Source: a virus
Length of the DNA stretch: 64,000 nt
IMG/VR virus record: IMGVR_UViG_3300045988_145100
Coordinates: 64,001-128,000 of that record
Direction: 5' to 3' (one strand)
In this document: positions 9,701 through 64,000 of the stretch, in pieces
Numbering within the stretch: the first letter of the stretch is position 1
Layout of the letters: every line of letters starts with the position of its first letter
The notes under the pieces: model-generated
The model's database searches: none
Seen by the model: the letters and a program-made list of their open reading frames with translations, nothing else
What the model was told of the DNA's origin: nothing
Program-made: the position numbers and the translations under genes

Positions 9701-12700
9701 TTTTGTGCTTCATATAAAGCTTCATAATTAGCTTTTTGAGTTACTAATAAATCATTTACTTGATTAAGATTATCAATTAATTCTTGTCCGTACAGATTAT
9801 CTTGTTCATCTTCAAGGCGCTCCATTGCATGAGCAACTTCATCAATAGCCTTCTTAAATTCCCAATATCTATCGAACTCATCTTCAAAGTATTTCTTCTT
9901 TGAAGATGAAGCAGCAGAACTACTACCCATAATCTTATCAAAATGCGCATCAATATTATCATAAACATTGCCTATCGCGGCAATCGCATTTTCCTGCGCA
10001 TCAATATACATTGTAACTTGTTGCATTGCTGCAGCATTGTTCTGAAGCTCTGTGTTTGCAGCAGCTAAACCTCTAGCTTCTGCAATTAAAGTCTCTGCAT
10101 AACTCATTGTCGATGTAGTCAACTTTTGAGTCATCTCTAATTCCATAGCTGCATTAACTACATTATCGCTTGATAAAATAGATTCAACTTTAGCTACAGT
10201 AATTCTTGCTTGACTTACTGCCATATCCGCAAGTTTAGCCTTAGTCATCTCTTTTAAGTCAGCAGTATTTAACTTAAACTGACTTCCATCCCACTCTAAT
10301 GCTGAAAGATATTTAGGTTCAAGTTCAAGGATAGCTTGAAGATTATCCATAGTAAAGTAACCATTAGCATTATAATCCTTCATAGCAGATGTTAGAGTCT
10401 TATACCCAGTTTGAATTTCATCAATAACACTACTATTAGCTTCTTGCGCTTTTTCGCCAGCTTTAACAACCTTGTTCCAATCTTCTGAATCAACGGTAAG
10501 GTCTTTAACTAAATCATCAAGTTTCTCTAACTGGTCTGAATATTTTTTATTACTAAGCTTTTTAAAGAAATTTACAACATCACTATCATCACTGCCATAG
10601 CCTTGATTTTTCATAGCATCTTTTAAATCTCTAATAGTGTCACTATTAAGACCACTTAAATCATTGCCATTAAACTTATCAACTAATTTACCAATATCAT
10701 CTTGAGTGAAATTAGCATCTGAATCTTCTGATAATAATTCTAATTCTTTTTGAGCTTCTTTATAGTCATCTATTTGCTCTTTATATTTTTCTTTATATGT
10801 ATCAGCTTCTAATTGAGCTTCTTCTCTTGCCGCATCACCAGTCTCTTCAATTAACTTTAATTTCTCGCCATAGAAAGATGCCATAAGAGTAGCTTGAGAT
10901 GACCAATCCATATTATTTAAAGTTTTTTCATCAACTGATACACCTTCAGATGTAACACCGGAAAAATCAAGAGTATCAAGAATTTGTTTCTTTTGCTTAT
11001 CTGTTAGTTCTGTTTTATCAGTAATTAAACCATCAACTAAAGTTTGTGCATAATCAGCTTCGCCTTTTTCTGCACTTCCTTTAAATACATTAGGAAGCTT
11101 TTCTGCCAATGAAGATAAAGCTTTTTCTGTATTATTACTATTCTTCTCCATTGCTTCACTAAGCAACTGAGAAAAATTATCACTAAAGAAACTTTGTTCA
11201 TAAGTAGAATAGTTATCTAAAGCTTTCGTCATAGATTCATAATATTGTAAACTATTTAATTCAGAAGCTATTTTTTGACTATCTTTCCATTCTTGAACAG
11301 CATTTTGGTCAACTTCTTTAGTATATATATAATTACCGCCTGCGCCAACTTGATTATAAGACTTATTATGGCTATTGTATTCTTCTTCAGTTATTTCACC
11401 TTTTGCAAAAAGACCCGTACCAAATAAACCTTTATCTTGATAGATATATTTAGCATTATCCCCAACAGCATTAAGATAATCTTCAGTAGTCTTCTTATCA
11501 ATTTCATCTTTCTGTTTTTGAATATCTTTAAATACATCTGTAGAAGTATTAGACATAATAGTGTCAGCAACTGTTGCAGTTTGAGCATATTCTTTTATAC
11601 TATCAATAGCAGACATATACGAATTTGCCCATTTTGAAGCATCCTCAATAGAATCATAAACACCTTTACTTAACGCTTCATGGACCATATTTCTCCATGT
11701 TGTAGTATAGTCTTCAATAGAATTAATCGCATCAAAGTTTTGGGCATCTACAATCATAGTCTTTTGGGCTTCATGCGCAGTATCTATAGATTCTGTTAAA
11801 CCATCAATTTGGTCTTTTGCACTTGATAAATACTGTCTTAATTGTTTTGCTGCAGAAGTATCAGAATCATTTAATACAGATTGAACTGCATCCGCATCTG
11901 TCTTAATTGCAGTAGCTAAACTTTGGAGACTAATTTTATCATTTGTAAGGAATTGAACTCCTAATTCTTGAAGTTGACTAGCTAAATTCTTTTCTTTAGA
12001 ATTTCTTGCAACCATACCTTTTAAGTCAATAGTCTCAGTTCCATTAACAAAATCTCTTCTACCTGAATCTTCTTCTGCACTTGCACTTAATTGGTCTTTA
12101 AGAGCTATTTCATAGTTTTTCTGTTCTTGCTTTGCAGAATTAAGTGTTTTCTCTGTTTTTTTACTCTCAATAGACTTCATAGCTTCTTCGAGACTCTTAT
12201 ATTCTCCACTTAATGCTTTTACTGCAAGCTCTTCTTCACCATATTGCATACAAAGGTCATAGCTTTGTTTCTTTAATGCGGAAGCTGATAATTCTCCATC
12301 ATTATACTTATTATATAATTCATCATAAGCTTTCTTTAATTCACTAACTTTATCTGATTCTTCTTTATACTGCTTTGTTCTTTCTGTTGTATTTTGTGCT
12401 ACTCTAAGACTTTCTTCTGCCTCTTTTTGTAAATTAGCTACAACCGCTTTATGAATAAGGTTATACACGGCATACGCTGCTGTTGCAACCTGAACAGCAA
12501 TACCAATTGCGCCCATTGCCTTTGAAACTTTACTTGCGATTTGAATTCCACGACCTTCAACCGCTTGAGTTGTTGCTACAATATCTTGCTCTTCTTGTGC
12601 GGCAGCTTTTCTCTGCTTTAAACTTTCAGTAAAGTTTGCCCATTCATTATCATTTGTAATAAGACCCTTTGTAATTCCTGTAAGTCTAGAATCTCTAGTT

Positions 12701-15700
12701 CTATATTGCGAATCAATTTTTGCTCCACTTACTTTAGAAAGCCAATCTTTTCTTTCATCAGCACTCATTTTAGATAAATTATCTGGCAAGTCTATTGTTT
12801 GACTTTCACCTATCAAACTTGCAAAATCTGATAATTTCTTTTGTTTACCTTTATCTTTTCCAAATACACTTTTCTTTTCAAGATATTCTTTAAATGAAGC
12901 ATCAATACTATCTTTTGTTTCTGCTAAATTGTATTTTCTGTCTTCTAATGCTTTTTGGTCTTTTAAAGTAGCTCTATTACCAATAGTTCCCGAAAGCATG
13001 TTTGAAAATTGATTAAATGATTTCTTTGTTTGAAGAAAACCAGACACACTAAAGCCCAATTGAGTAAAAAGTCCAATTATAGAACCAATACTTAATTTTA
13101 AATCTCCAGAAAATAATTCTTCTATAGATTCAAAAACAGAATAAGCACTATTAGCAGTCATCGCAAAACTACTCATAGCACTCGCGCCATTAGCAAAATT
13201 CTCGCCAATACTACCTACAGAAAATCCCATCTCATTAATAGAATCAACTACTGATTTAGAATGATTTTGAACATCTAATAAAGATTTTACATAATCTGCT
13301 AAAGACTTATCTGAAGCCTTTATCGCTTTATGTTGTTCATCAAGTGCGTCAGATATCTTTGTAACATCTGTAGCTTCAAAACCGTAATTTTGTAAAACAC
13401 CTCTGAGATTGCCACTAAGAGTATCTCGATTTGTAAGATAACTCGTTCTATTGTTTTCAATCATCTGTAGCATATGAGCATAGTCTGTTTTATCTGCACC
13501 TGCTACATTCTGACCAGTAATAAGCTTTTTAATATTACCTTCTTTTTTATATTCATTTAATTTCATAAGGTCATCAATCATTCGCTTATTTTCATTTGAA
13601 GAATTATAAAGAGTAGATAATGTTTCTTGCATATCTTTTAAAGAAAATTTACCTGATTTAACTTTATTCATATCAAATAAATTTAAAACTTTATTACTAG
13701 TAGAAATATTAGTTTCATTTCCAGCATATGCTAATTCTGCAGCATTATAGTCTTCAAAAAATTGATTCTGAAGAGCTTCCTGTGCTTCTTCATCAAAATT
13801 AGGATTAACCATGCCTTCAGCTAACTTTTTAGTATCTCTATATTTTTCAAGGTATGATTTATATACTGTTTTATTAATATTCGCACTATTTGTTGGTCTT
13901 CGTTCTTTTTCTGAGAATCTATAATTACCATTCTCATCTGCAGGGTCAACTTGATGTATCATATCCCAATAGCGGCTATTTCTTGCTCTGGTTTTTTCTA
14001 TACCTTTATAGTTTTGACTAAGATAATATTCACTAGGTAATTCATCTGCTTCACCTAATAATACTTTCTTTGCATAAAGCTCTTGTAAAGTATTTTCAGG
14101 TAAATTTTTTGCATAATAAGCTTTGTTTACTTCTGAAGTAATTTTTTCACGAATTTTTTTACTGTCTACGTTGTCTAAAGATAAATTAGTGCTTTTAAAT
14201 CTCTGACCAATAGATGAAATATCGTCAGATGCAGCGTGTCTAGCTTTATTTTTAGTATCATAAATCTGAGCTGTAACTTCAGCTTCTTCTGTTAATTGTT
14301 TTAATTGAGCTTTTTCATTAGCTATTTGTTCTATTTGAGATTCAGTTAAATTTGCATTTATTTTAGCTAACTCTTTTTTCTTCTCAAAAATAGCATTTTC
14401 AATATCATAATTTGCTTTCATATTAGCTACTTGCGCACGGTCTTCTGGCGTTCTTATATCCATTCCCGCAATCATAGCTTTATATTCTTTTTGAGCCTTC
14501 TCTCGGGTTGCCTCAATTTCTTTGCCCATAATACCAAATTTAATTTTAAAGTTATCAACAACTTTATCAACATATTTGCTTATTTGAGGACCTTGATTAG
14601 AAATTATAGTATTTGCTAATAAAATAAAAGCAGTTCTAACTCCACCAACAGAATCAACAAAATGACCAAATCCTTCAATAGCTTTACTAAGGAATTTCAT
14701 TAAATCAACCATAGTTTTACTATCAATAAGATTTGAATAAATTTCTTCTAATGAAGTTTTTATTTTCTTAGATGCGGCATCCCATGATTCTGCATAAATA
14801 TCAGCTTGCTGTTGTAAAGAACCTTCTGCACCCTTAGCTATATTTAAGTTCTCTTGGAAGACATCCCATTTATCCATTAAGGCAATTAATTGGCTATACT
14901 GACGAGTACCTGCAACTGCTTGCGCAACTGCAATCTGTGTATCCTTAGAAATGGTTTTCCATTTAGAACCCATATCGTCTAAGATATCATCCATATCACG
15001 AACTTCGCCTTTTGAATCTTTAATATTAACACCAATAGATTCAAGAGCCTTAGAATACTGACCTAATGTTGTTCCATCATCTAAAGTATTACCTAACTCT
15101 AAGTCCTGGATACGTGCGAATAATGTCTTAAATGCAGTACCTACAGTATCTGCGGACTGACGAGTTTCTGCAACAACAGTTGCAAGAGCAGAAGTAGCAT
15201 ATTCGTATGATAAACCTACAGTATTACCAATAGAAGCAAACTTCTCAAGACCTGCTGCGATTTCATCTGTACTAGATGCAGTTGCCGCACCTAATGCAGT
15301 AAGAACATCTGCAAAGTATTCTACGCTTTTTGAACCATCATTAAAGTTATTCCAAATAGCTGTCATATAAGAAGAAACATCCGCCGCAGTCTCTCCTGTA
15401 ACACTTGCCATCTTTGTAACTGCATCAGTACGTTCCTTAACTGCGGCAGTATCCAGACCTTGCTGATAGAAGATTAATGCCGCATTTGTATATGCAGTTG
15501 TTGTTGTATTTAAAGCTTTGGCAGATTCATTTGCTTGTTTAGCAAATTTAGCCATATTATCTGAACTTTCTCCAGATACTATTCTAATTTCATTTAATGA
15601 TTTATCAAGCTTTCTACTATATTCAAAAGCTTTACTAAATTCTGTTTGTACTTGATGAACGGCACCTGAAGCTACAGTCCATTTCGCACTATTTGTAAGA

Positions 15701-16110
15701 GTAGTAGAAAAACTCTTTAAAAGTCCTTCAGACTGTCTTAAAGGAACTTCCGCAGACATAATAGATTGCGCTAAAGATGTAAATGCTTTTTGACCTTGAG
15801 GACCTAATGATTCTAAATTCTTACGAACTTGAGAAATAGTAGTACCAGACTTATTTAAGTTTGTAACAAATTTAGATAAATCAAGGTTATCTCCCTTAAA
15901 AGTCATTGATTGTGATAATATACCATTTAATTTACTAGCTTCTATTACAGCTTTGGAAATATCAGAAGATAAGGTATTAGTTGCTGTATTCTGCTTTGCG
16001 GCAACCGATAAATTAACTATCTGTTTTTGTAAATCTTGAATTTGAGCTTTTGCTCTTGAGGTATCGGTATTGAACCCTATATCAATATCAATTCTTTTTC
16101 TTCCTGCCAT
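6778..16110 (-). CDS. Tail tape measure protein, 3110 aa
   Basis: Giant ORF that is coiled-coil-rich throughout. The N-terminal region contains a TP901-family TMP core-like segment (...TAIWNNFNDGSKSVEYFADVLTALGAATASSTDEIAAGLEKFASIGNTVGLSYEYATSALATV...). Position between tail tube/chaperone genes and the fibre gene fits a TMP. Confidence 0.8.
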   Translation of the reverse strand: MAGRKRIDIDIGFNTDTSRAKAQIQDLQKQIVNLSVAAKQNTATNTLSSDISKAVIEASKLNGILSQSMTFKGDNLDLSKFVTNLNKSGTTISQVRKNLESLGPQGQKAFTSLAQSIMSAEVPLRQSEGLLKSFSTTLTNSAKWTVASGAVHQVQTEFSKAFEYSRKLDKSLNEIRIVSGESSDNMAKFAKQANESAKALNTTTTAYTNAALIFYQQGLDTAAVKERTDAVTKMASVTGETAADVSSYMTAIWNNFNDGSKSVEYFADVLTALGAATASSTDEIAAGLEKFASIGNTVGLSYEYATSALATVVAETRQSADTVGTAFKTLFARIQDLELGNTLDDGTTLGQYSKALESIGVNIKDSKGEVRDMDDILDDMGSKWKTISKDTQIAVAQAVAGTRQYSQLIALMDKWDVFQENLNIAKGAEGSLQQQADIYAESWDAASKKIKTSLEEIYSNLIDSKTMVDLMKFLSKAIEGFGHFVDSVGGVRTAFILLANTIISNQGPQISKYVDKVVDNFKIKFGIMGKEIEATREKAQKEYKAMIAGMDIRTPEDRAQVANMKANYDIENAIFEKKKELAKINANLTESQIEQIANEKAQLKQLTEEAEVTAQIYDTKNKARHAASDDISSIGQRFKSTNLSLDNVDSKKIREKITSEVNKAYYAKNLPENTLQELYAKKVLLGEADELPSEYYLSQNYKGIEKTRARNSRYWDMIHQVDPADENGNYRFSEKERRPTNSANINKTVYKSYLEKYRDTKKLAEGMVNPNFDEEAQEALQNQFFEDYNAAELAYAGNETNISTSNKVLNLFDMNKVKSGKFSLKDMQETLSTLYNSSNENKRMIDDLMKLNEYKKEGNIKKLITGQNVAGADKTDYAHMLQMIENNRTSYLTNRDTLSGNLRGVLQNYGFEATDVTKISDALDEQHKAIKASDKSLADYVKSLLDVQNHSKSVVDSINEMGFSVGSIGENFANGASAMSSFAMTANSAYSVFESIEELFSGDLKLSIGSIIGLFTQLGFSVSGFLQTKKSFNQFSNMLSGTIGNRATLKDQKALEDRKYNLAETKDSIDASFKEYLEKKSVFGKDKGKQKKLSDFASLIGESQTIDLPDNLSKMSADERKDWLSKVSGAKIDSQYRTRDSRLTGITKGLITNDNEWANFTESLKQRKAAAQEEQDIVATTQAVEGRGIQIASKVSKAMGAIGIAVQVATAAYAVYNLIHKAVVANLQKEAEESLRVAQNTTERTKQYKEESDKVSELKKAYDELYNKYNDGELSASALKKQSYDLCMQYGEEELAVKALSGEYKSLEEAMKSIESKKTEKTLNSAKQEQKNYEIALKDQLSASAEEDSGRRDFVNGTETIDLKGMVARNSKEKNLASQLQELGVQFLTNDKISLQSLATAIKTDADAVQSVLNDSDTSAAKQLRQYLSSAKDQIDGLTESIDTAHEAQKTMIVDAQNFDAINSIEDYTTTWRNMVHEALSKGVYDSIEDASKWANSYMSAIDSIKEYAQTATVADTIMSNTSTDVFKDIQKQKDEIDKKTTEDYLNAVGDNAKYIYQDKGLFGTGLFAKGEITEEEYNSHNKSYNQVGAGGNYIYTKEVDQNAVQEWKDSQKIASELNSLQYYESMTKALDNYSTYEQSFFSDNFSQLLSEAMEKNSNNTEKALSSLAEKLPNVFKGSAEKGEADYAQTLVDGLITDKTELTDKQKKQILDTLDFSGVTSEGVSVDEKTLNNMDWSSQATLMASFYGEKLKLIEETGDAAREEAQLEADTYKEKYKEQIDDYKEAQKELELLSEDSDANFTQDDIGKLVDKFNGNDLSGLNSDTIRDLKDAMKNQGYGSDDSDVVNFFKKLSNKKYSDQLEKLDDLVKDLTVDSEDWNKVVKAGEKAQEANSSVIDEIQTGYKTLTSAMKDYNANGYFTMDNLQAILELEPKYLSALEWDGSQFKLNTADLKEMTKAKLADMAVSQARITVAKVESILSSDNVVNAAMELEMTQKLTTSTMSYAETLIAEARGLAAANTELQNNAAAMQQVTMYIDAQENAIAAIGNVYDNIDAHFDKIMGSSSAASSSKKKYFEDEFDRYWEFKKAIDEVAHAMERLEDEQDNLYGQELIDNLNQVNDLLVTQKANYEALYEAQKVEAEELRSSLSAYGALFDEEGRLTNYADITTSMFAQYGNVDDSETYEEFKKYLERYDTLYYSEMVDTTDKIVEESKKILENNLKIWETDIQINLDLKQAERDWNDFLKEINRNFKSTFSDAGQEIEYALKKAQTFNLNDGTLASDIQKVENINYEIDQLKNGGTSDLFSSLSEAENALKEANKTLQDDAEELFSTYEEGWNAYLEYIDDVGTHLDNINKKYEELNEELEHQANLISLLYGDTAYDKLAKLYDTQQKNNLAQLKSLRQQTDFYQAQYEKAVQLDGEDSKSAEKWLEKKKQAMQDLRSEEETYIKTIQSKYNNTIDSIIKKARMATNGGVDTDWARTMYDLTKTKSEGNYDDVERVYQLTSLQSKWNKLIADTTGTKNQEKLKKIMDEQLANLEKKATLTEYDIGLAEKALAVEQARIALEQAQNSKDSMKLTRNAEGNWSYQYVADEDNVAEKQQDLLDAINDKYEYVKSANQQALDDLLQYEEDFWNKYAEIMKDVSLSDEERQSRIAQLYDMYYGKEGILTQAYQDSAQTQQDLNLVTAEQLWAIYESDQEKYATMTAAEQELIDGLKNGTIKSYEDIQEAGQRVNDESLDYWNTTAQAMADAWNADDGMSIKSQVNEALKDCSSALGDYNADVDAGCAAAGEDFTDVGSAIDDVSSAIDDLDGTTEDYIDNAEKLIDDYINSLKELESQWKEVKAIVEQNIETMKKYELAAKSASTVKTPAAAAPSSGGSVGGNSTDIADNNPPEETVHYYSVDSAPDGDGLVVTVYERTGNSEKAIGRDGEEPKDYRDHRISSVWEARDYINQVLSDNGYDEELDPNVNVQTSGYKYYLDNARVNTYSFDTGGYTGEWDNSGRLAVLHQKELVLNKDDTENILNAVEFVRGIASSIGASLLSQLAGMTNATSSIHPVSADYLSSNVSNASNNNVYNVTAEFPNAESVQDIREALLSLPNLVSQKVNEKNI

Positions 16111-46465: not shown

Positions 46466-47011
46466 ATGCAGGCAAATGAAAAAGAAATGTGTAAAAAGGC
46501 TAAAGAATTATTCACAAAGAAACATAAGCCAACTATTGATGAAGCATTTAACAATGCCGCAGAAAGTTTTGATGTACTCAAAGATAAAATCACAGAAATG
46601 CGCGATTCTTTGAAAAATTTAGATGAAGAACTTTATAAAAATAAAGAAGTAAAAAAGTTAAAAGAAGACCTCCTTCAGACACAGGCGGAATTAGCAGAGT
46701 ATAAAGAGCGTTATTACAATAGCTTCTCCATTACAACATATGAAAATTATGGTTTAGAAGAATGGTGGCAGCATCATAGAGCGGAAGCACATATACAGGA
46801 ACGTGGAGAATCAACTTTAAAACCAAAAGATAGATTCTTTGTATTTAAACCAGGTATTAATGGAACCGTAGCTACTTGCTATTGTGCTAAATGCGCAAAG
46901 ATATTATATTATAACCATAGAGATTTAAACTATGATGAACTTTTAGAATTAATGCGACAAAAGGGTGTTTCATACAGAATAACTAAATATCCTTGGGAAG
47001 GAGAAAATTAA
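46466..47011 (+). CDS. Coiled-coil / zinc-binding protein, tandem paralog 1
   Basis: 181 aa; C-terminal CYCAKCAK cluster. Confidence 0.45.
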   Translation: MQANEKEMCKKAKELFTKKHKPTIDEAFNNAAESFDVLKDKITEMRDSLKNLDEELYKNKEVKKLKEDLLQTQAELAEYKERYYNSFSITTYENYGLEEWWQHHRAEAHIQERGESTLKPKDRFFVFKPGINGTVATCYCAKCAKILYYNHRDLNYDELLELMRQKGVSYRITKYPWEGEN

Positions 47012-47508
47012 TGTCAGGAACCTGTTTTATTAATAATAACCCCACTAAAGTTATATATACAGAAAAAGAAGTAGATGAATCTCTTTTTCAGCTTGAGTGG
47101 AATATGAAGAGACTTTTAAAAGAAAATAATGAACTAAATGCAGAAAATGAGTCTCTTAAAAGTGAGCAATATAAAGACGCGGAACTCTCTAAATTGAAAA
47201 GTGAAATAGATAGATTGAGAAGAATCTTAAATCAGTCTTTTCCAGTAAATGAAAGAGAAAAAGAATCAATAAAAGAATGGTATAAGGAACATAGCGATAA
47301 GATGCATAATGGAAGAGATTTTAATTATGTATATGAATTTACTCCAACAGCAATAGCTACTTTTGGAGATTGTATTTGTACCACTTGCCGCGGAAAAGCT
47401 AGACAGAAAGCTATTATAAACGATAAAAATGGTTTAAGGATAGAACCAAATATAATAAAAGATTATCTTGATAGAAGTGGCGGAGACTTTCAATTTAAGA
47501 TAGAATAA
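46993..47508 (+). CDS. Coiled-coil / zinc-binding protein, tandem paralog 2
   Basis: 171 aa; C-terminal CICTTCRGK cluster; overlaps paralog 1 by 19 nt. Confidence 0.45.
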   Translation: MGRRKLMSGTCFINNNPTKVIYTEKEVDESLFQLEWNMKRLLKENNELNAENESLKSEQYKDAELSKLKSEIDRLRRILNQSFPVNEREKESIKEWYKEHSDKMHNGRDFNYVYEFTPTAIATFGDCICTTCRGKARQKAIINDKNGLRIEPNIIKDYLDRSGGDFQFKIE

Positions 47509-47536
47509 GCGGGGTCTTATACTCCGCTTTATTTTT
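47509..47536 (+). terminator. Rho-independent terminator
   Basis: gcgggg-tcttata-ctccgc followed by tttattttt. Confidence 0.55.
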
Positions 47537-47590
47537 GTAAAAATTTATGTTATAATATTTATATAAGAAAAGGAAAAGAGGTATATAAAT

Positions 47591-48294
47591 ATGACAACAT
47601 TATTAGTAGAGGATAAATTAACAAAAGTATTTAATGAAATTGTAAAAAAGTTCCTGAGAAATTTGGTTGGGATGAGTATAACACAGAAGAAGAGAATACA
47701 GCAGTAATTTCAGAAGCTTTAAGAGATGCTAAAGTTGCGGGAGGCGCATATCGTGGTGCAACTAAAGCTGTTGCTGTTGTTTCAGGTTGTAGTTCTGTTC
47801 TTAAAGTTCCTTATTCTGGTAAATGGGACTATGATGAATCAGTAGACTGTGATTATTTTACAAGATTTGAAGGTGCAGATAATTCTGAAGACCATAACTG
47901 GGACTATTGTTTAACAGAATATGAAGTTTATGAAGCTGCAAAGGAAAATGGATTAGATATATTTTTCCCAAAGACAGAAATCATGGGAGAATGTGAATCT
48001 GGCACGATTATTAAGCAGGAAAGGGTATTAGACTTTTATGAATACTGCCCTATTTCAGAAGATGAAACAATAGAATTTGTTAATTCAGATATAAAATATT
48101 ATGGTTTTGCAGATTCTCAGTGGGTTGCCGTAGCTATTGAAAGATATGGAAAAGCTATGGTTGATAAACTCATTGACTTTTTAGAAAATAATTTTCCTAT
48201 TGTAGTTAAAGATTTACATAATGGAAATATTGGTTTTAGAAAGAATGGTGAGCCAATTATCCTTGATTTTTCGGGCTGGAATGAAGACTGTTAA
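47591..48294 (+). CDS. Hypothetical protein that needs a -1 frameshift at A_AAA_AAG (47644-47650) to be made full length; the zero-frame product ends at 47707
   Basis: ATG 47591 has a good SD. The zero frame stops after 38 codons. The -1 frame is open and coding-like from 47649 to 48294, and has no start with an SD of its own before ATG 47983. Confidence 0.45.
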
Positions 48295-48333
48295 TTTTAA
48301 AAATTATGATATAGGAGGCTATAAAGATATATA

Positions 48334-48507
48334 TGGTCAATACAGTATTAGGTATAGGTATAATAGTTAGTGCTATTATGTTATTAATCTGTTATATTAT
48401 AAGCTGTATAACAACAAATGAAATTATATATAAAGTTTCAACTGGTTTAGCTGTAGCTTCATTAATGTTTATAATGGGCTTTAGTTTAAGTTACGCTGGA
48501 AATTAAA
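48334..48507 (+). CDS. Small membrane protein, 57 aa
   Basis: SD ataggaggc; two hydrophobic helices. Confidence 0.35.
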
Positions 48508-48535
48508 ATTAAAAAGGAGTAGTGTATAAAAATAT

Positions 48536-48910
48536 ATGAATGATAGTACTTTATTAGCGATAATAATTTTGATTACTATGATTATAATAGTAACAATTTT
48601 AAAGTCTGAAGGAAGAAGAATATTTGATTTCTTATGGGCTGTTTGGATTATTTTTGTAGGATTCTTAATTTCATTGGACTTTGTAAAAGGAGAATATTCA
48701 TTAATATTAGAAGTTATTTTCTGGATTGCTGCAATCTTAATCTTATGTTTTGTATTAGCGGCTATTATTTTTTTAATATTATCTTTTATTTATGGTAAAA
48801 AGAAAGATGAGAAAAAGGAACATAAAAGCATAAAGATATTTTATCTATCTTTAATTATTGCTGTTTTATTAAATATCATACTACAGATATTAGGAATATT
48901 TATTAAATAA
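48536..48910 (+). CDS. Multi-pass small membrane protein
   Basis: 124 aa with four hydrophobic segments. Confidence 0.45.
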   Translation: MNDSTLLAIIILITMIIIVTILKSEGRRIFDFLWAVWIIFVGFLISLDFVKGEYSLILEVIFWIAAILILCFVLAAIIFLILSFIYGKKKDEKKEHKSIKIFYLSLIIAVLLNIILQILGIFIK

Positions 48911-48922
48911 AGTGTGCGGAAA

Positions 48923-48950
48923 GGAGGCTCTTATGCCTCCTTTATTTTTA
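48923..48950 (+). terminator. Rho-independent terminator
   Basis: ggaggc-tcttat-gcctcc followed by tttattttta. Confidence 0.6.
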
Positions 48951-56881: not shown

Positions 56882-56999
56882 TTGATATTTATAAAAATTT
56901 ATGTTATAATATTTATATAATAAATAAGACACAAACAGCAATTTTTTAGCTTATAAGAAAGCACTACTCTGTTAAAGTAGATAACTGTGTCTTGTGTTT

Positions 57000-57073
57000 G
57001 GTCCTTTAGCTCAGCTGGTTAGAGCGCTCGTCTCATAAGCGAATGGTCCTGGGTTCGAGTCCCAGAAGGTCCA
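57000..57073 (+). tRNA. tRNA with anticodon CAT (Met / fMet / Ile-lysidine class)
   Basis: Hand-folded cloverleaf: acceptor ggtcctt/aaggtcc (one T-T mismatch), D-arm gctc-agctggtta-gagc, anticodon loop ctCATaa, T-arm ctggg-ttcgagt-cccag. Confidence 0.6.
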
Positions 57074-57582
57074 TTTAAGAATTTATCAGTTCTTAATGCG
57101 TGCATACAGTATTAGATATGTTGACTTGCTTATCAAATAGTTATAAGTCGTGAGTTACTGCGTTAAAGATGACAAGTTGTATGATAATAGTTTTCTTAAA
57201 GCTTTTATTAGGGCGGCAACCTGCCGATAACAAATAGCCATTTTTTAAAAATTTTTGGACAAAGTAATTTAAGTATTATAAAATATTTTTTATATAAAAT
57301 ACAAACTTGAAAAATATAAAAAAATATGATATAATATTTATATAAAGAAAAGAGGTAAGTTACTACCCATGCTTCTCCTCTATAAAAAAGAAGGTATGCA
57401 GGGTGAGGTTGACGGAGAGCGACTAAGGCTGCGGTTTACCCAAGAGAATAAAATCTCCTACTAGCGAAATCTAGTTAAAACTACCAAATTACTCATAGTC
57501 GTATAACAGTAATTTGATTTTTATAAAAATTTATGTTATAATATTTATATAAGATAAAGAAAAAAATATTTTTCCTCTCTCA

Positions 57583-57653
57583 TTCAAAGGTAGGATGCAC
57601 GCCTGTTAAGCGTAGAATCTGGGTTCGAATCCCAGGGGAGGAGCTTCCAGTTG
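57583..57653 (+). tRNA. tRNA-Asn (GTT)
   Basis: Acceptor tcctctc/gggagga, anticodon stem (c)acgc/gcgt(a) with loop ctGTTaa, T-arm ctggg-ttcgaat-cccag. Confidence 0.55.
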
Positions 57654-57915
57654 CGGAACTGGTTAAATAAAACCGAGTAGTCAGTTGTCAGTAACCTTGT
57701 TAAAACTGTCAATGTTCATATCCGAAGAGATTTCAGTGTTCGGTAGAGGTTATGAATGAAGAATGTAGTGAGTTCGATTCTTGCTTGTCCGCCGTAGTTG
57801 GACACATGGTGGCATTTGAAGTATTCCTTGTTGGTTGATTAAATGAAACATGTTGCCGCATGTGGATTAAAATACCAAAATACCTTGACTATAATGACGG
57901 CAATCATTATAGAAA

Positions 57916-57989
57916 TGCTTGTTAGTTTAAATTAATTGGAAAAACACTCCGGGAAGGGGAGATGTTGGGTTCGAATCCCACACAAGTGA
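57916..57989 (+). pseudogene. Degenerate tRNA-like element: canonical T-arm but aberrant D and anticodon arms
   Basis: ttggg-ttcgaat-cccac T-arm and a pairable acceptor, but a 13-nt D-loop, a 4-bp anticodon stem and loop gggaagg with purines at positions 32/33. Confidence 0.25.
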
Positions 57990-58264
57990 TTTTGTCAAAG
58001 CAAAGACATTAAAACTCGCTGATTATTAGGTGTGAATAATAGTCGTTGGCTACATGCGTAAGAAAAATAGTTCGAGAGAGCTATCGGAGCCGTAGAGGAG
58101 AAAGATATCGGCATATGGATAACACACTCCTAGATGCGAGAAATCAAATTAAAGGAAGATGGTATATGCAGCTAATAGAGAGAGTAAAGAGCGCTAGCTT
58201 GTAGCGAAACAACCTGCCAAAAGTAAGTTTATTGGTTTATCTTACATTGGTGAAAAACCTTTTA

Positions 58265-58335
58265 ATTTTATAATCTGGTTTAGTTTAATGGTAGAACCCT
58301 GGCTTTGTAACCCAGTAACGAGAGTTCGACTCTCT
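58265..58335 (+). tRNA. tRNA-Thr (TGT)
   Basis: Acceptor tctggtt/aaccaga, D-arm gttt-aatggta-gaac, anticodon stem ctggc/cccag (C31-C39 mismatch) with loop ttTGTaa, T-arm gagag-ttcgact-ctctc. Confidence 0.55.
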
Positions 58336-58373
58336 CAACCAGAATTAGTACTTTAGTACTAGAAAGGAATGTT

Positions 58374-58652
58374 ATGAAAATATGGCTTGATGATTTAAGA
58401 AAAGCACCTTGCGGATATGTGTGGTGTCATTCAGTTAATGAGACTATATTATTTATTGAGAAGAATAAAAGTGATATAGAATTAATTGATTTAGACCATG
58501 ATTTAGGTGATTTCGCTAAAGATGGCGGCGATGCTATTTATTTAATGGATTATTTAATAGAAAAGAAGTTATTCTATAAGCTAAATTTTCATACTGCAAA
58601 TCCAGTAGGCTTAGCAAATATGTTAAGATTGTATGATAGATACTGGGTATAA
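58374..58652 (+). CDS. Small hypothetical protein embedded in the tRNA array
   Basis: 92-aa ORF (MKIWLDDLRKAPCGYVWCH...) with SD aaaggaatgtt, lying between tRNA-Thr and tRNA-Ala. Confidence 0.4.
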   Translation: MKIWLDDLRKAPCGYVWCHSVNETILFIEKNKSDIELIDLDHDLGDFAKDGGDAIYLMDYLIEKKLFYKLNFHTANPVGLANMLRLYDRYWV

Positions 58653-58725
58653 GGGGCTGTAGCTCAGTTGGGAGAGCATTCGTTTTGCAAGCGAAAGGTC
58701 GTGGGTTCGAACCCCACTAGCTCCA
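58653..58725 (+). tRNA. tRNA-Ala (TGC)
   Basis: Acceptor ggggctg/tagctcc (two G-U pairs), D-arm gctc-agttggga-gagc, anticodon stem ttcgt/gcgaa with loop ttTGCaa, T-arm gtggg-ttcgaac-cccac. Confidence 0.6.
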
Positions 58726-58735
58726 TTAATCATAT

Positions 58736-58764
58736 TTGATTTTTATAAAAAAATATGATATAAT
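58736..58764 (+). promoter_or_regulatory. Consensus promoter copy inside the tRNA array
   Basis: ttgatt-N17-TGa-tataat. Confidence 0.6.
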
Positions 58765-58929
58765 ATTTATATAAGATATGAAAAAAGAAAAAATGTGAAA
58801 AAGATTTTGTAGTAGCATTAAAAATGACAATATACTAATCAGAAAATCTTTATGCGGAAACGCTCTGTAATTAGTATTTCAAGTTTAAATTAGATTGTTT
58901 GGCGTTAACAATAAAATAAAACGCCACTT

Positions 58930-59010
58930 GCGGGATTGGTGAAATTGGCAAACACATACGATTTAAGCTCGTACGCTTTAAGCTTGTGAGTTCGAGTCTC
59001 ACATCCCGCA
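58930..59010 (+). tRNA. tRNA-Leu (TAA), type II
   Basis: Acceptor gcgggat/atcccgc, TG-gtg-aaattggcaaa-cac D-arm as in bacterial tRNA-Leu, anticodon stem tacga/tcgta with loop ttTAAgc, 12-nt variable arm, T-arm gtgag-ttcgagt-ctcac. Confidence 0.65.
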
Positions 59011-59135
59011 CTAACCTAAGAAATTAAATTGTGGTATAAAGACATGATAACTAAGTCTTGTAAGAGATTATTTTATCTTTTATAAAAGTTTTCTTCTCTA
59101 CTAGTGAGTAACAAGCTTTTGAAGTTATCTTATAT

Positions 59136-59205
59136 GTATCATTCGTATAATGGTTTGTACGCTGGGTATTCCCTAGAAGAGTGAGTTCGAATCTTACATG
59201 ATACT
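59136..59205 (+). pseudogene. tRNA-like pseudogene with a 5-nt anticodon loop
   Basis: Perfect acceptor gtatcat/atgatac, normal D-arm and T-arm (gtgag-ttcgaat-cttac), but an anticodon arm ctggg-tattc-cctag. Total length 70 nt. Confidence 0.35.
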
Positions 59206-59313
59206 TTTTAGGCACTAACAGCGAATTTGATGATTCTAACAAACAAAAATATTTGTATGTAAAATGCTAAAGGCTTTATATCCTTTAATTAATCAATAGT
59301 GTCTAGTTTTTCT

Positions 59314-59385
59314 TGAGAGATAATATAATGGTTAGTATGCCTCTCTGATACGGAGGTCATCCGAGTTCAACTCTCGGTCTCTCAA
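59314..59385 (+). tRNA. tRNA-Ile (GAT)
   Basis: Acceptor tgagaga/tctctca, anticodon stem cctct/ggagg with loop ctGATac, T-arm ccgag-ttcaact-ctcgg. Confidence 0.6.
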
Positions 59386-59586
59386 TTTAACACTAGTCTG
59401 AATGGCGTGTCGCGGCGATAGGTCAGACGAAGATTATAGGAAAGTCTCCTGGCACATAATGAGATACTGCCTATATCAGACAGAAGCGAACTGTCTTTAA
59501 ATCAAATGATTAACTCTTACAGCAAAATATGTAGACAACACTATTTTTAAATAGTTTTCATAATACATACCCGAGTTTAGAAATAT

Positions 59587-59615
59587 TTGATTTTTATAAA
59601 AAAATATGTTATAAT
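59587..59615 (+). promoter_or_regulatory. Consensus promoter copy inside the tRNA array
   Basis: ttgatt-N17-TGt-tataat. Confidence 0.6.
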
Positions 59616-59765
59616 ATTTATATAAGATATGGGTTTATAAGTGGCTAGTAACTTCCGTCTAACTTACCCAGACATAGAGTTACCTTTTATCAAGAAAGTA
59701 AATCTTGGTCGTGCGACTACGAGAAGTTACTCTTTGCCAACTAGAGTATAATATAAGTTGGATTT

Positions 59766-59839
59766 GGCTTCTTCTTCTAATCGGTTTAGGAATCTAGGTT
59801 CTCATCCTAGGAATGTCAGTTCGAATCTGGCAGAAGTCA
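59766..59839 (+). tRNA. tRNA with anticodon CTC (Glu by the genetic code); identity is tentative
   Basis: Acceptor ggcttct/agaagtc, anticodon stem ctagg/cctag (perfect) with loop ttCTCat, T-arm gtcag-ttcgaat-ctggc. Confidence 0.45.
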
Positions 59840-59903
59840 TTCAGATGCGAAGTTTTGATAAGTTACCTCTTTTCTATATGCTAGGATTTTCTCCTAGCAG
59901 CTT

Positions 59904-59975
59904 GGCTCTTTCGTCTAGCGGTTAGGACAGCGCCCTTTCACGGCGCAGACCCGAGTTCGAATCTCGGAAGAGTCA
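59904..59975 (+). tRNA. tRNA-Glu (TTC)
   Basis: Acceptor ggctctt/aagagtc, D-arm gtct-agcggtta-ggac, anticodon stem gcgcc/ggcgc with loop ctTTCac, T-arm ccgag-ttcgaat-ctcgg. Matches the classic bacterial tRNA-Glu pattern. Confidence 0.65.
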
Positions 59976-60031
59976 TTTAATCAAAAATTTTTAAATTTTT
60001 GATATAAAGGTTTTGGTGGATAATTACCACC

Positions 60032-60066
60032 CTCCTTTACTTAAAGATATACTATAAAGTAAGGAG
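60032..60066 (+). promoter_or_regulatory. RNA hairpin that sequesters the ribosome-binding site of the GIY-YIG endonuclease gene
   Basis: 5' arm c032-t042 (ctcctttactt) pairs with 3' arm a057-g066 (aagtaaggag). The SD aaggag at 60061-60066 lies entirely inside the 3' arm, 6 nt before ATG 60073. Confidence 0.5.
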
Positions 60067-60072
60067 TATTTA

Positions 60073-60699
60073 ATGAGTTATATTTATAAAATTGTTAATT
60101 CTATTAACAATAAAATGTATATTGGTAAAACATCATTTCCAATAGAAAAAAGATTTCAAGAACATATTTCAGCTAGTAAAAAAGAAAGATGTGAAAAGCG
60201 TCCTTTATATGATGCAATGAATAAATATGGAATAGAAAATTTTTTCATAGAACAAATTGAAGAAGTTGAAAATGATGATATTGCTTGTCAAAGAGAACAA
60301 TACTGGATAAAGAAATTAAGAACATATGTAGGCTATGAAGATTGCGTAGGTTATAATGCTACTTTAGGTGGTGACTCAAGAAGATTATATGATTATGAAG
60401 AAATTTCTAAAAAGTATATTGAGTTACAATCAGTTAAAGAAACTTGTAAATTCTTCAATTGCGATAAGTTAGTTGTTAATTTAGCTTGTAAAGAAAATAA
60501 TGTAACAATTCTTGATGGTAGGCAAAGAAAACAAGTTAGGAGATACAATATAGATAAGACTGAATATAAAGATTATCCTTCAATAACAGAAGCTGCTAAA
60601 GATATCCCTAATAAACCAATAGAAACAGCAAGAAAAAATATCTCAAGAGCAATAAATAAAGGTTTAGTTGCTTATGGATATTATTGGAAAAGAATTTAG
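60073..60699 (+). CDS. GIY-YIG homing endonuclease (SegB-like, free-standing, inside the tRNA array)
   Basis: N-terminal YIYKIVNSINNKMYIGKT...R...EH...N GIY-YIG catalytic motifs; C-terminal basic DNA-binding region (AYGYYWKRI, NUMOD-like); 208 aa. Confidence 0.75.
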   Translation: MSYIYKIVNSINNKMYIGKTSFPIEKRFQEHISASKKERCEKRPLYDAMNKYGIENFFIEQIEEVENDDIACQREQYWIKKLRTYVGYEDCVGYNATLGGDSRRLYDYEEISKKYIELQSVKETCKFFNCDKLVVNLACKENNVTILDGRQRKQVRRYNIDKTEYKDYPSITEAAKDIPNKPIETARKNISRAINKGLVAYGYYWKRI

Positions 60700-60702
60700 T
60701 GC

Positions 60703-60776
60703 CGCGGGTTGGAGAAGTCAGAATCTCGTCGGACTCATTATCCGAAGAACGCTGGGGCAGAGCCAGCACCCGCTAC
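60703..60776 (+). pseudogene. Possible degenerate tRNA-like remnant (CAT-type anticodon loop) immediately after the endonuclease gene
   Basis: gcgggt...acccgc acceptor-like helix, anticodon-like arm tcgga-ctCATta-tccga, atypical T-loop ggcagag. Confidence 0.2.
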
Positions 60777-60901
60777 TTGGTTTTTCTGAATTTCTTCCTT
60801 TAAAAATTCAGTTCATATAAATTTCCTTTCTGTTAGCGGATTGGTTGACAATAATGTCAACCTTACCCGCTTGATATAAACAAAAGGAAATAAAAATCTA
60901 T

Positions 60902-60930
60902 TTGATATTATATAAAATTTATGATATAAT
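60902..60930 (+). promoter_or_regulatory. Consensus promoter copy
   Basis: ttgata-N17-TGa-tataat. Confidence 0.6.
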
Positions 60931-60973
60931 ATATATGTAACAAAGAAAAGGAAAAGAAAAGGAGATTTATATT

Positions 60974-61294
60974 ATGGCAGGACAGAATAAGAGAGTATCA
61001 AGAGTATCAAATGGTGGTAGAACAAAGGCTCATAAAGCTCAGGAAGCTAAGCGTCAGGCAAAGTTTGCTGCAAAGCGTGAAGCTGGAAAAGCTTATGTAT
61101 ATAAGGCAAATCCTTACAAGCCTTACACAAAGAAGTGGTGGATTGAAAAGGACAAGAGGGCGGAGAAAGCTAAGTCATCAAGAGTTCCTTATGCAATCGT
61201 AACATCAATCTTTGCTAAGCTTGATAATAAGATTGCTAAAGAGAAAGAAGCTGCAGCTAAGGCAAAAGCTAAGAAGGCTGCGGCAACCGCTTAA
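60974..61294 (+). CDS. Highly basic Lys/Ala-rich protein (histone H1-like / nucleic-acid-binding) inside the tRNA array
   Basis: 106 aa: ...AKRQAKFAAKREAGKAYVYKANPYKPYTKKWW...AKEKEAAAKAKAKKAAATA; SD aaaaggagat. Confidence 0.45.
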   Translation: MAGQNKRVSRVSNGGRTKAHKAQEAKRQAKFAAKREAGKAYVYKANPYKPYTKKWWIEKDKRAEKAKSSRVPYAIVTSIFAKLDNKIAKEKEAAAKAKAKKAAATA

Positions 61295-61306
61295 TAAAAT
61301 AAGCGT

Positions 61307-61380
61307 GCTAGAATAGCTCAAATGGTTAGAGCAGGCGTTTCATAAGCGTCAGGTTGCTAGTTCGATTCTAGCTTCTAGTA
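61307..61380 (+). tRNA. tRNA with anticodon CAT, second copy (Met / fMet / Ile-lysidine class)
   Basis: Acceptor gctagaa/ttctagt (G1-U72), D-arm gctc-aaatggtta-gagc, anticodon stem ggcgt/gcgtc with loop ttCATaa, T-arm gctag-ttcgatt-ctagc. Confidence 0.55.
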
Positions 61381-61385
61381 TTTAT

Positions 61386-61469
61386 AGGGGAGCGCCGAAG
61401 TTGGAGAGTCGGGGCGGTCTGTAAAACCGTTGCCTTCGGGCTGAGTGAGTTCGAATCTCACCTCCCCTA
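61386..61469 (+). tRNA. tRNA-Tyr (GTA), type II
   Basis: Acceptor aggggag/ctcccct, anticodon stem gcggt/accgt with loop ctGTAaa, long variable arm tgccttcgggc, T-arm gtgag-ttcgaat-ctcac. Confidence 0.6.
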
Positions 61470-61908
61470 CTAGGTTGGAGATTACCTAAAAATCTTCTGT
61501 TAAGCTTTTCTTAATTTTTTATATAAGGATTTTATAATACCTAATATAAAAGATTATTGTTTTCCATAAAAGTTAATACTGAAAACAAAGATGTTTTGTA
61601 CAAACACCATATGTAAGTAGAGCTTCCGAGCTGCGATACTTCATTAAAGCCCATACCGCAATATTACTTTTAATAGATAGAAAATAATGCTCAAATGTAT
61701 TTTTTTGGTTTTAAAAGAGTTTATTAATGCGGGCTTTGTAATTAAACATTAGTAAACAAAATATAGTCCATACAGCAAATGTTCAAGAATATCAGATGAT
61801 TTTATTACTTATTAATTCTTACAGCTGTAAATTACACTGATGACTTATTAAATACTAAAACTTAGGACTTAGAAAATAATAGTTTTAATATAATGATAAG
61901 TCATTTTT

Positions 61909-61980
61909 GCTTCTATCGTTCATCGGTTAGGACAATGTCCTGTCACGGCATAGAGGTGGGTCCGACTCCCACTAGAAGCG
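61909..61980 (+). tRNA. tRNA-Asp (GTC)
   Basis: Acceptor gcttcta/tagaagc, D-arm gttc-atcggtta-ggac, anticodon stem atgtc/ggcat with loop ctGTCac, T-arm gtggg-tccgact-cccac (atypical C55). Confidence 0.55.
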
Positions 61981-62435
61981 TTCACCATAGTTTAAGTATA
62001 ATGAGTTTTAATTAGTAAGTACATGACGATGTTACTGAAGATTAATACATAGTTATACATCAAATTAATTCTTGACTATAGCAGGGGTGATTTGTAGAAC
62101 AGTCTGCCAGTAGCAGAAAGATTCAGTAGAAGTCTGAGGGTGACTTTAATGTTTTTGTGCTAAGCACAGTATTCTAATTTTACTAAACAAAATTTTAAGT
62201 ACAAGAATTGGTTTAGTGCTGCAGTATTTATCAGTATTGTAGCTATGCTGTTGATGATACAGCCGAGGTTAAAGAGCGTTAGTGACCAGTGGTGGTGTTA
62301 TGCTTTGTAATGAAGCATGTTAAGCTAATGACACACGGTTAGGTTTGAGATGTAGAGAGCAAGTCTCAGAAGGCAAGACCTATCAGAATAACAAGCATCT
62401 TAGGGTTGCAACCTCATGATAGGAAATAGCTAAAT

Positions 62436-62507
62436 GCAGGTGTAGTACATCGGCTAGTGCGCCAGACTTCCAATCTGGATAGACGGGTTCGATTCCCGTT
62501 ACCTGCT
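62436..62507 (+). tRNA. tRNA-Gly (TCC)
   Basis: Acceptor gcaggtg/tacctgc, anticodon stem ccaga/tctgg with loop ctTCCaa, T-arm acggg-ttcgatt-cccgt. Confidence 0.6.
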
Positions 62508-62622
62508 TTATCGTAGGGGTTTGGAATCCCCTAAATGAGGCAACCGCCGCGATAATACAAAATTCTTGCAAGAAACAAAATATTATACAATAGAATTCTT
62601 ATTGGTTGTAGGTTCTATTGTT

Positions 62623-62696
62623 TGTGGTGTAGCTCAATCAGGTAGAGCGTTAGCGGCTGGAGCTAAAGGTTAGAGGTTCAAATCCTTTCACCACAA
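62623..62696 (+). tRNA. tRNA-like gene with a non-canonical anticodon loop ggCTGga (G at position 33); possibly Gln-CTG, or a pseudo-tRNA
   Basis: Perfect acceptor tgtggtg/caccaca, D-arm gctc-aatcaggta-gagc, perfect 5-bp anticodon stem ttagc/gctaa, T-arm agagg-ttcaaat-ccttt. Confidence 0.35.
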
Positions 62697-62809
62697 TTCT
62701 GTAGTCGGCATTGGTAAACATAGGAAACTAGATGTCGATGGTTATGAATAAGGATAAAAGTTGCAACAAAACTTGTTCAGATTATGCGGAATTGCAACAC
62801 CGCATTTTC

Positions 62810-62883
62810 GGGGAATTAGCTCATATGTGGCAGAGCACTCGGTTGAAGCCCGAGGCGGAGAGGCTCGATACCTCTACTCCCCA
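62810..62883 (+). tRNA. tRNA-Phe (GAA)
   Basis: Acceptor ggggaat/actcccc (one A-C mismatch), D-arm gctc-atatgtggca-gagc, perfect anticodon stem ctcgg/ccgag with loop ttGAAgc, T-arm agagg-ctcgata-cctct (atypical T-loop). Confidence 0.5.
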
Positions 62884-63029
62884 TTTTATTAAAGGCTTAA
62901 ACAGCAATTCAGTGTAAGTACTGGTTGAGAAAAACAAATATTAAAATATTAAAGTTATTAAATAACGAGCCTAGCATAATAGATTATTTCTTAATTTTAA
63001 TATAAAGTAGCTTTATAGTTACTCTTATT

Positions 63030-63103
63030 GCGCCTATAGCTCAGTTGGCTAGAGCATCAAACTTTTAATTTGAGGGTCCCGAGTTCGAGTCTCGGTGGGC
63101 GTA
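63030..63103 (+). tRNA. tRNA-Lys (TTT)
   Basis: Acceptor gcgccta/tgggcgt, D-arm gctc-agttggcta-gagc, anticodon stem tcaaa/tttga with loop ctTTTaa, T-arm ccgag-ttcgagt-ctcgg. Confidence 0.6.
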
Positions 63104-63408
63104 TTAAAATATTAGTGCCTTAACTGAGAGTCAGGATTCAAAGGTTAAATGAGGTAATCAGTCCATAAATCAGCTAATACTTTTAATGTAAGATAAAAGA
63201 AGAAAAAGGGTTTAGGACTTCTTTTGTAACGATACACAAACCAGCAACCCTGAGCTTTATATTAGCAACAGTCCACGAAGTAATTTTCTAGGAGTGCTGT
63301 TTAGGTGGTTATCTCTTACAAAAATAAACAGTAGAAAGGAGATAAATATGAGAAAGGATATTCATACAGCTTTTCACCTATAAGTTCTTTTTAAAGGAGG
63401 AATTATAA

Positions 63409-63684
63409 GTGAGTAGAAGTTATAAAAAACATAATTGGTATTGTGACCACAAAGGAAAAGAGAAAAAAAGAACTGCTAATTCAGTAGTCCGTATGTGGTT
63501 AAAAGACCATCCAGATGAAGTTATCAAAAGGAGTAGTTATAAAAAAATTTATGAAAAGTATGATATTTGTGACTGCAAAATTTTTGCTTCTTGGGAAGCT
63601 TATTATTTAAGCTGTTTAAGATGGGGCGATACTGATTATAAGAGAATTTATCGAACATGGCTTCAGGTTTATAGAAATAAATAA
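63409..63684 (+). CDS. Small basic hypothetical protein (GTG start) inside the tRNA array
   Basis: SD aaaggagg 8 nt upstream of GTG 63409; 91 aa rich in Lys, Arg, Tyr and Cys. Confidence 0.4.
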   Translation: MSRSYKKHNWYCDHKGKEKKRTANSVVRMWLKDHPDEVIKRSSYKKIYEKYDICDCKIFASWEAYYLSCLRWGDTDYKRIYRTWLQVYRNK

Positions 63685-63686
63685 TT

Positions 63687-63771
63687 GCGGGTATGGCGTA
63701 AAGGTATCGCAGAGCATTGCTAATGCTTCCACCTCATGCGGGGTGTCTAAGTTCGAATCTTAGTGCCCGCG
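63687..63771 (+). tRNA. tRNA-Ser (GCT), type II
   Basis: Acceptor gcgggta/tgcccgc, TG-gcg...cgc D-arm, anticodon stem gagca/tgctt with loop ttGCTaa, long variable arm, T-arm ctaag-ttcgaat-cttag. Confidence 0.6.
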
Positions 63772-63774
63772 TTT

Positions 63775-63846
63775 GCGGGAATACGCTAATGGATAGACGA
63801 AGTGGCTACGAACCACTCAGTTGGAGTTCGAGTCTCCATTTCCGCA
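63775..63846 (+). tRNA. tRNA-Arg (ACG)
   Basis: Acceptor gcgggaa/tttccgc (one G-U), perfect anticodon stem agtgg/ccact with loop ctACGaa, T-arm tggag-ttcgagt-ctcca. Confidence 0.6.
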
Positions 63847-63852
63847 CTTATT

Positions 63853-63938
63853 GCCGCGTTGGCTCAACTGGTACAGCACGGGTCTTGAAAACCCGCATCT
63901 TCGTAAGGGGTATCTGAGTTCGAATCTCAGGCGCGGCG
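63853..63938 (+). tRNA. tRNA-Ser (TGA), type II
   Basis: Acceptor gccgcgt/gcgcggc, anticodon stem cgggt/acccg with loop ctTGAaa, long variable arm, T-arm ctgag-ttcgaat-ctcag. Confidence 0.6.
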
Positions 63939-64000
63939 CTGTAGATGATGACGACATCTACACGGCAGGATTCGTCACCTGCCGTGGATACACGCCTGTC

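Follow-up and report, generated by a model that had tools for sequence, protein, structure and literature searches.

A kinase-like gene of a human-gut phage probably broken by the loss of one A from a lysine-codon tract

The window analysed here is a 64,000-nt stretch of viral DNA (positions 64,001 to 128,000 of IMG/VR record IMGVR_UViG_3300045988_145100) from an uncultured ~145-kb human-gut Firmicute phage. Within it, positions 47591-48294 probably constitute one ordinary gene, encoding a predicted kinase-like protein, that was broken by the loss of a single A (A7 to A6), and not an instance of programmed recoding. In the sub-lineage of the window, two adjacent lysine codons, AAA AAA, following an A-ending codon would have created an A7 tract, and replication slippage is the most likely cause of its shortening to A6. 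Translation from ATG 47591 would then run out of frame past residue 20 and end at 47705, yielding a 38-aa peptide that lacks the kinase domain. The slippery heptamer A_AAA_AAG found at the break would be a by-product of the one-A loss and no evolved recoding signal, and full-length protein identical to wild type would be made only through unprogrammed -1 slippage or rare RNA-polymerase slippage. The allele is most likely real and recent, the latter since the frame 3' of the break is still intact, and it is most likely a loss-of-function or strongly hypomorphic one. Homopolymer frameshift mutation is an already known and ordinary phenomenon. The features of the locus are collected in Table 1.

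Table 1. Features of the interrupted kinase-like gene and its flanks, in window coordinates
Feature	Position	Strand	Description
Intrinsic terminator of upstream unit	47507..47538	+	9-bp stem (5 GC pairs) and T-run; hairpin 47507-47529
Putative extended -10 promoter-like element TGTTATAAT	47549..47557	+	5' of the gene; read from the sequence; kept in relatives L001 and L002
Shine-Dalgarno sequence AGAGG	47577-47581	+	9 nt 5' of ATG 47591
0-frame ORF as it stands	47591..47707	+	38 codons; stop TAA 47705-47707
0-frame codons 1-20			True N-terminal part of the kinase-like protein; all homologues align with residues 1-20
0-frame codons 21-38 (FLRNLVGMSITQKKRIQQ)			Out-of-frame read-through up to the TAA; no alignment to homologues
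Six A followed by G	47644..47650	+	Site of 1-nt deletion in the former A7 tract; forms A_AAA_AAG in 0-frame register
-1-frame part of the kinase-like gene	47650..48294	+	214 codons and stop; carries invariant G56, K72, D208, N213 and D226
103-aa ORF	47983..48294	+	Reported by gene callers on frameshifted contigs; C-terminal piece of the kinase-like gene
Small hydrophobic ORFs (57 and 124 aa)	48333..48910	+	3' of the kinase-like gene; terminator 48920-48943 beyond

An earlier note on this DNA had described a 38-codon ORF, opened by a Shine-Dalgarno sequence and ATG 47591, that gives way to a long -1 frame exactly at the heptamer. The start signals and the stop are present, and the heptamer does coincide with the frame switch, lying in register within the frame overlap. 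Translation of the 0 frame gives MTTLLVEDKLTKVFNEIVKKFLRNLVGMSITQKKRIQQ before the stop. The -1 frame stays open between 47638 and 48294 (preceding stop 47635-47637, terminal stop 48292-48294) and is long, as had been claimed, with the correction that it adds 214 codons and a stop rather than 215 codons. The shift must happen within the 70-nt overlap 47638-47707, where the heptamer is found 6 nt past the opening of the -1 frame; the run at 47644-47649 comprises exactly six A followed by G, read as GTA AAA AAG in the 0 frame. A -1 shift at this point yields a 234-aa product. The only in-frame starts of the -1 frame are ATG 47983 and ATG 48157, in agreement with the claim that none precedes 47983. 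A functional 103-aa protein produced by re-initiation at ATG 47983 was considered and rejected, as this ORF has no Shine-Dalgarno sequence, no N-lobe and no K72.

The gene is flanked by putative signals of its own. The sequence of the upstream terminator is kept in the same two relatives as the promoter-like element, which the consensus promoter scan missed because there is no good -35 hexamer at that place. The 57-aa and 124-aa hydrophobic ORFs adjoin the kinase-like gene in all relatives, suggesting a three-gene unit bounded by the terminators at 47507 and 48920. A 5-bp terminator-like hairpin inside the gene (47758-47774) and an Rfam L20-leader match overlapping the upstream terminator (E 0.67, 19 bits against a gathering threshold of 58.7) were both taken as chance. 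Terminase and portal lie on the minus strand, and the kinase-like gene lies on the plus strand among small ORFs that have their own promoters and terminators, a setting consistent with early expression. Early expression is plausible given the putative extended -10 promoter that follows a terminator, the small-ORF surroundings and the resemblance of the product to early kinases of the T7 group.

Several other properties of the phage were recorded. Its portal shares 33-38% identity with the portals of large myoviruses of Enterococcus and Bacillus, and 59.6% with the one from a human-faecal 'Bacteriophage sp.' Two giant minus-strand ORFs, 1235-6673 (1812 aa) and 6778-16110 (3110 aa), adjoin the structural module. 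Two adjacent ORFs upstream of the kinase-like gene, at 46466-47011 (181 aa) and 47011-47508 (165 aa), show weak paralogy (E 1e-6, with 25% identity over 95 aa), each with a coiled-coil-like N-terminal part and a Cys-rich C-x-C-x2-C tail, and neither matches a PHROG. An array of 19 tRNA genes (56999-63939) includes tRNA-Lys(UUU) at 63029-63104, two tRNA-Met and, at 59136-59205, a tRNA-Asn-like gene whose anticodon, ATT, is unusual. Among the 30 ORFs of at least 150 aa in the window, the Lys-Lys dicodons are AAG AAA (53), AAA AAA (26), AAA AAG (21) and AAG AAG (18). AAA makes up 69% of lysine codons in these ORFs, yet AAG AAA outnumbers AAA AAA, suggesting general selection against long A-runs in the coding sequence of this phage.

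DNA covering the site was gathered from 26 loci, the window included. In 15 of them (L014, L015, L016, L017, L021-L029 and L032-L033), drawn from many different runs and studies, the site reads GTA AAA AAA GTT, an A7 tract that is in frame. Six further loci, representing four distinct contigs and including two IMG/VR genomes of 147-150 kb, read GTA AAG AAA GTT in frame, and a 48%-identical relative reads GTA AAA AAT, again in frame. The out-of-frame states are A6, found among the 26 loci in the window, L010 and L012 only, and A8, found in L011 only. Across 1436 nt, the only differences between the window and the nearest A7 contig (L014) are the substitution 48273 G>A and one additional A in L014; the L014 product, P0033, is letter for letter the conceptual fused 234-aa protein. 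Relatives one base longer with an unbroken ORF are at hand (A7 in L014, L015, L016 and L017), along with the A8 of L011, and conceptual repair of the window's gene recreates a natural protein that is predicted to fold as one domain across the junction.

The near-identical A8 contig (L011, Logan ERR11570316, ~92-121) reads GTA AAA AAA AGT TCC TGA; it is out of frame in the opposite direction. It has the SNP 48273A in common with the A7 contig L014, indicating that A6 and A8 are independent events, and because they arose independently the tract appears to mark a mutational hot spot. The pattern corresponds to slipped-strand mispairing in a mononucleotide run, with the same single-base loss and with relatives that differ by tract length only (A6, A7 and A8). 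There is no substantive difference from an ordinary homopolymer indel or pseudogenisation; the case is special only in leaving a slippery heptamer in register.

Of the two explanations offered in the earlier note, the indel is borne out by the in-frame A7 of 15 of the 26 loci and by L014, which equals the window plus one A and one SNP. Programmed -1 frameshifting is not, as the ORFs of homologues are unbroken with one more A. The heptamer together with both frames is absent from homologous phages outside six assemblies of two runs, and the short 38-aa product has no conserved counterpart among the homologues. DNA and protein searches of INPHARED with the gene returned no matches. Only chance matches came up when JGI metagenome contigs and GTDB genomes were scanned by pattern (L013, L019 and L020, none resembling the window), and a scan of IMG/VR likewise gave only chance matches beyond two loci already known.

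At the protein level, a search of 5.8 billion proteins with the fused product brought up about 25 clusters at 80-94% identity and two more at 45-48%. All are single proteins, 231-241 aa long, with 98-100% coverage of the query, and the alignment is unbroken across junction residues 18-23, V-K-K-V-P-E. An exhaustive profile search recovered 1518 cluster representatives at E<=1e-3 and 783 at E<=1e-10; the best 150 of the 1518 are 194-272 aa long, many of them aligned from profile position 1-4 to 231-232. The family consists of single ORFs of about 210-270 aa from phages or metagenomes (P0047-P0193; clusters at 50% identity). No model for the protein was found among Pfam, NCBIfam, PHROGs (function) or PADLOC. 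This large family of minimal kinase-like phage proteins, having no family model, could merit its own description. In one member, P0028 (194 aa, from a 953-nt ENA contig), an HTH N-terminus (PF13384) precedes the last two-thirds of the kinase-like sequence; it seems to be a further copy of the gene that was disrupted or made chimeric in nature, perhaps by a mobile element.

The predicted structure is that of a bilobal kinase. AlphaFold run on an alignment of 142 sequences (A2) gave a pLDDT of 95.6 and a pTM of 0.91, solving what an earlier model from a 31-sequence alignment (pLDDT 52, unusable) had not. Residues 11-30 score pLDDT 97-98, so in this model one domain spans the junction and includes, as an integral element, the helix formed by residues 6-20, coded 5' of the break. 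Nearly all of the top 50 Foldseek matches were kinase-like folds; in BFVD, uncharacterised phage proteins of the same size came first (TM 0.64-0.70), followed by T7-group entries annotated 'protein kinase'. The part of the protein encoded in the -1 frame includes the catalytic-loop and DFG-like motifs. K72 (VLKVP), D208 and N213 (DLHNGN) and D226 (ILDFSG) are invariant among the 142 sequences and correspond to the beta3 Lys, the catalytic-loop D-x4-N and the metal-binding Asp of the DFG motif of the protein-kinase-like (PKL) superfamily. In a PDB profile search the catalytic loop aligned to that of ribulosamine-3-kinase 6oid (E 0.005-0.01). The 234-aa product is predicted to be a kinase-like enzyme of the PKL superfamily. 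The 38-aa product would be inert as a kinase, since all catalytic residues sit 3' of the break.

Similarities with the T7-group gp0.7 and other phage protein kinases include the general fold type, with the Lys, the catalytic-loop Asp/Asn and the DFG-like Asp all present in the window's product, as well as a phage-encoded, promoter-proximal position in a unit among small ORFs and the 'protein kinase' annotation of BFVD neighbours. In contrast, the product shows no detectable sequence homology to these kinases by Pfam or NCBIfam, is much smaller (234 aa) and reaches only a modest TM of 0.4-0.5.

The A6 allele is identical in six contigs of ~145 kb, the output of three assembly pipelines applied to each of two human-gut runs of project PRJEB7369 (ERR636395/SAMEA2784494 and ERR636396/SAMEA2784495). 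In that project, students were sampled before and after travel, with sequencing on an Illumina HiSeq 2000 (PMC5725903). The consecutive accessions suggest that the two runs may stem from one person at two time points, and A6 may for that reason represent a single event. A true genome with A7 and an intact gene, in which A6 is a homopolymer error of sequencing or assembly, is an unlikely alternative. Either a systematic miscall or mixed tract lengths within a sample may lie behind such a call. The artefact reading would account for the position of the break in a homopolymer, for a nearest relative that differs by the extra A and one SNP only and for a downstream frame free of visible secondary degeneration. 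Against this, the same A6 was recovered in two separately sequenced HiSeq 2000 libraries by three assembly pipelines, and that platform does not typically produce errors in the consensus at A6/A7.

The window itself also speaks against a general homopolymer problem, since all ten other A7-A8 runs inside its long ORFs are in frame. No other gene in the window was found broken at a homopolymer; the scan flagged gene junctions only, and its best other candidate, at 54537, was set aside as an ordinary 14-nt overlap of two genes. With two Illumina libraries, three assemblers and intact A-runs elsewhere, a genuine deletion is the more likely of the two, and A6 is probably a real, recent deletion that makes a null or leaky allele. 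Both samples yielded a full-length assembly of the A6 phage in spite of the break, which is compatible with a dispensable gene and equally with leaky expression sufficient to matter. As natural null alleles exist, the gene would be non-essential for persistence in the gut.

A second alternative accepts the indel as genuine and assigns it a role. The A7 tract would be a contingency (phase-variable) locus that toggles the kinase ON and OFF through A6, A7 and A8. Some hosts, such as those in which the kinase sets off a defence, would favour OFF, and leaky slippage would supply a trickle of enzyme. Two independent out-of-frame alleles on different backgrounds (A6 in the window, A8 in L011), the persistence of the A6 phage in two samples and a further gene copy disrupted in a different way (the HTH-kinase chimera P0028) are in keeping with this possibility. 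However, 15 loci from many runs keep a stable, in-frame A7 tract, which is short for a contingency locus, and A8 is known from one short Logan contig. The genome also disfavours AAA AAA (26 against 53 AAG AAA), suggesting that such tracts act as liabilities instead of being maintained. A contingency locus is thus improbable, though not negligibly so.

A precedent is provided by the G7 run of the herpes simplex virus (HSV) thymidine-kinase gene, where a 'saviour indel' goes together with compensatory frameshifting at a low level (Atkins et al. 2016, PMC5009743). There too a viral gene of kinase type is inactivated by +/-1 changes in a 7-base homopolymer, and the mutated run could allow traces of full-length enzyme. 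In contrast with HSV, the present host is bacterial, the case is known here from sequence alone and there is no known selective agent; the comparison is an analogy only. That the A7 Lys-Lys tract serves as an ON/OFF switch of an early phage kinase in gut phage populations, with A6 or A8 selected whenever the kinase carries a cost or the host detects it, is a doubtful proposition. If true, an ON/OFF switch combined with a low useful enzyme dose from slippage on A_AAA_AAG would be the phage counterpart of the herpesvirus 'saviour indel'.

A site of the dnaX or IS (IS3) kind, at which -1 ribosomal frameshifting is programmed to yield the 38-aa peptide and a set ratio of the 234-aa trans-frame kinase, has far less in its favour. 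A_AAA_AAG is the most slippery bacterial heptamer, and it stands here as a canonical X_XXY_YYZ site with the right register. A product made across the two frames would equal the functional protein, and the A6 phage was abundant in two samples. The phage itself encodes a tRNA-Lys(UUU), a tRNA type linked to high slippage on A_AAA_AAG in E. coli. The register, however, follows automatically from the removal of one A from A-AAA-AAA-G (GTA AAA AAA GTT), as does the identity of the trans-frame product with the wild-type protein. Since a one-A deletion from A7 necessarily creates the heptamer, its presence is not independent evidence of recoding. The meeting of heptamer and frame switch is a real coincidence, trivially explained by the loss of one base from the A7 tract. 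Nor is AAAAAAG enriched in the window, where 41 copies occur at 31% GC compared with 52.8 +/- 6.5 expected from shuffles.

Stimulators of frameshifting, which would be a stem-loop or pseudoknot 5-9 nt 3' of the heptamer and/or a Shine-Dalgarno-like sequence 5' of it, were sought on both sides. The earlier note had seen no strong stem-loop 3' of it, and folding gave the same picture, with -9.6 kcal/mol for the 80 nt at 47651-47730 (z = +0.56) and -3.8 kcal/mol for the 50 nt at 47651-47700 (z = +0.71), both less stable than shuffles. The 20 nt on the 5' side are A/T-rich and hold no G-rich Shine-Dalgarno-like element, and Rfam gave no relevant match at the locus. Synonymous variation is not reduced beside the site, with GAG/GAA, GGT/GGC, GAT/GAC and again GAG/GAA differences among relatives 10-30 nt 3' of it. 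The E. coli dnaX site (tau/gamma) has the identical heptamer and register, but it also has a 5' Shine-Dalgarno-like element and a 3' stem-loop; the window's site has neither and is unconserved. In dnaX, moreover, the 0 frame gives the long product and the shift the short one, whereas in the window the shift would be needed for the sole functional product.

The comparative data weigh most heavily. Relatives are uninterrupted (A7, AAG AAA or AAA AAT), the heptamer is limited to six assemblies from two runs, the tail of the 0 frame is out-of-frame sequence with no conservation, and the A8 of the sister contig is beyond rescue by a -1 shift. On these grounds programmed frameshifting appears largely refuted and is very improbable. 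Under the preferred reading of a one-A loss, some rescue by unprogrammed slippage on the bare heptamer may still occur. In E. coli reporters, stimulator-free heptamers reached 2.1-10 times a background of 0.055% (PMC4066793), and the expected rescue would on that basis be at most a few tenths of a percent, a figure taken from E. coli and applied to a Firmicute host. Restoration of the frame in some of the mRNA by RNA-polymerase slippage is likewise very improbable. The run is homopolymeric, and bacteria and IS elements provide documented cases of slippage on A/T runs (PMC5009743), but the productive ones cited there have runs of ~9 or more, A6 is far shorter and the tract is not conserved.

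These results bear on annotation as well as on the interpretation of slippery sites. The region 47591-48294 should be annotated as one disrupted gene and not, as in public gene calls, as separate genes of 38 aa and 103 aa. Because a deletion can mimic the heptamer, a canonical slippery site at a frame break does not amount to evidence of recoding unless it has comparative support. Caution is warranted in AT-rich phage genomes in particular, where the loss of one base in a Lys-Lys A-run automatically mimics the dnaX heptamer in register.
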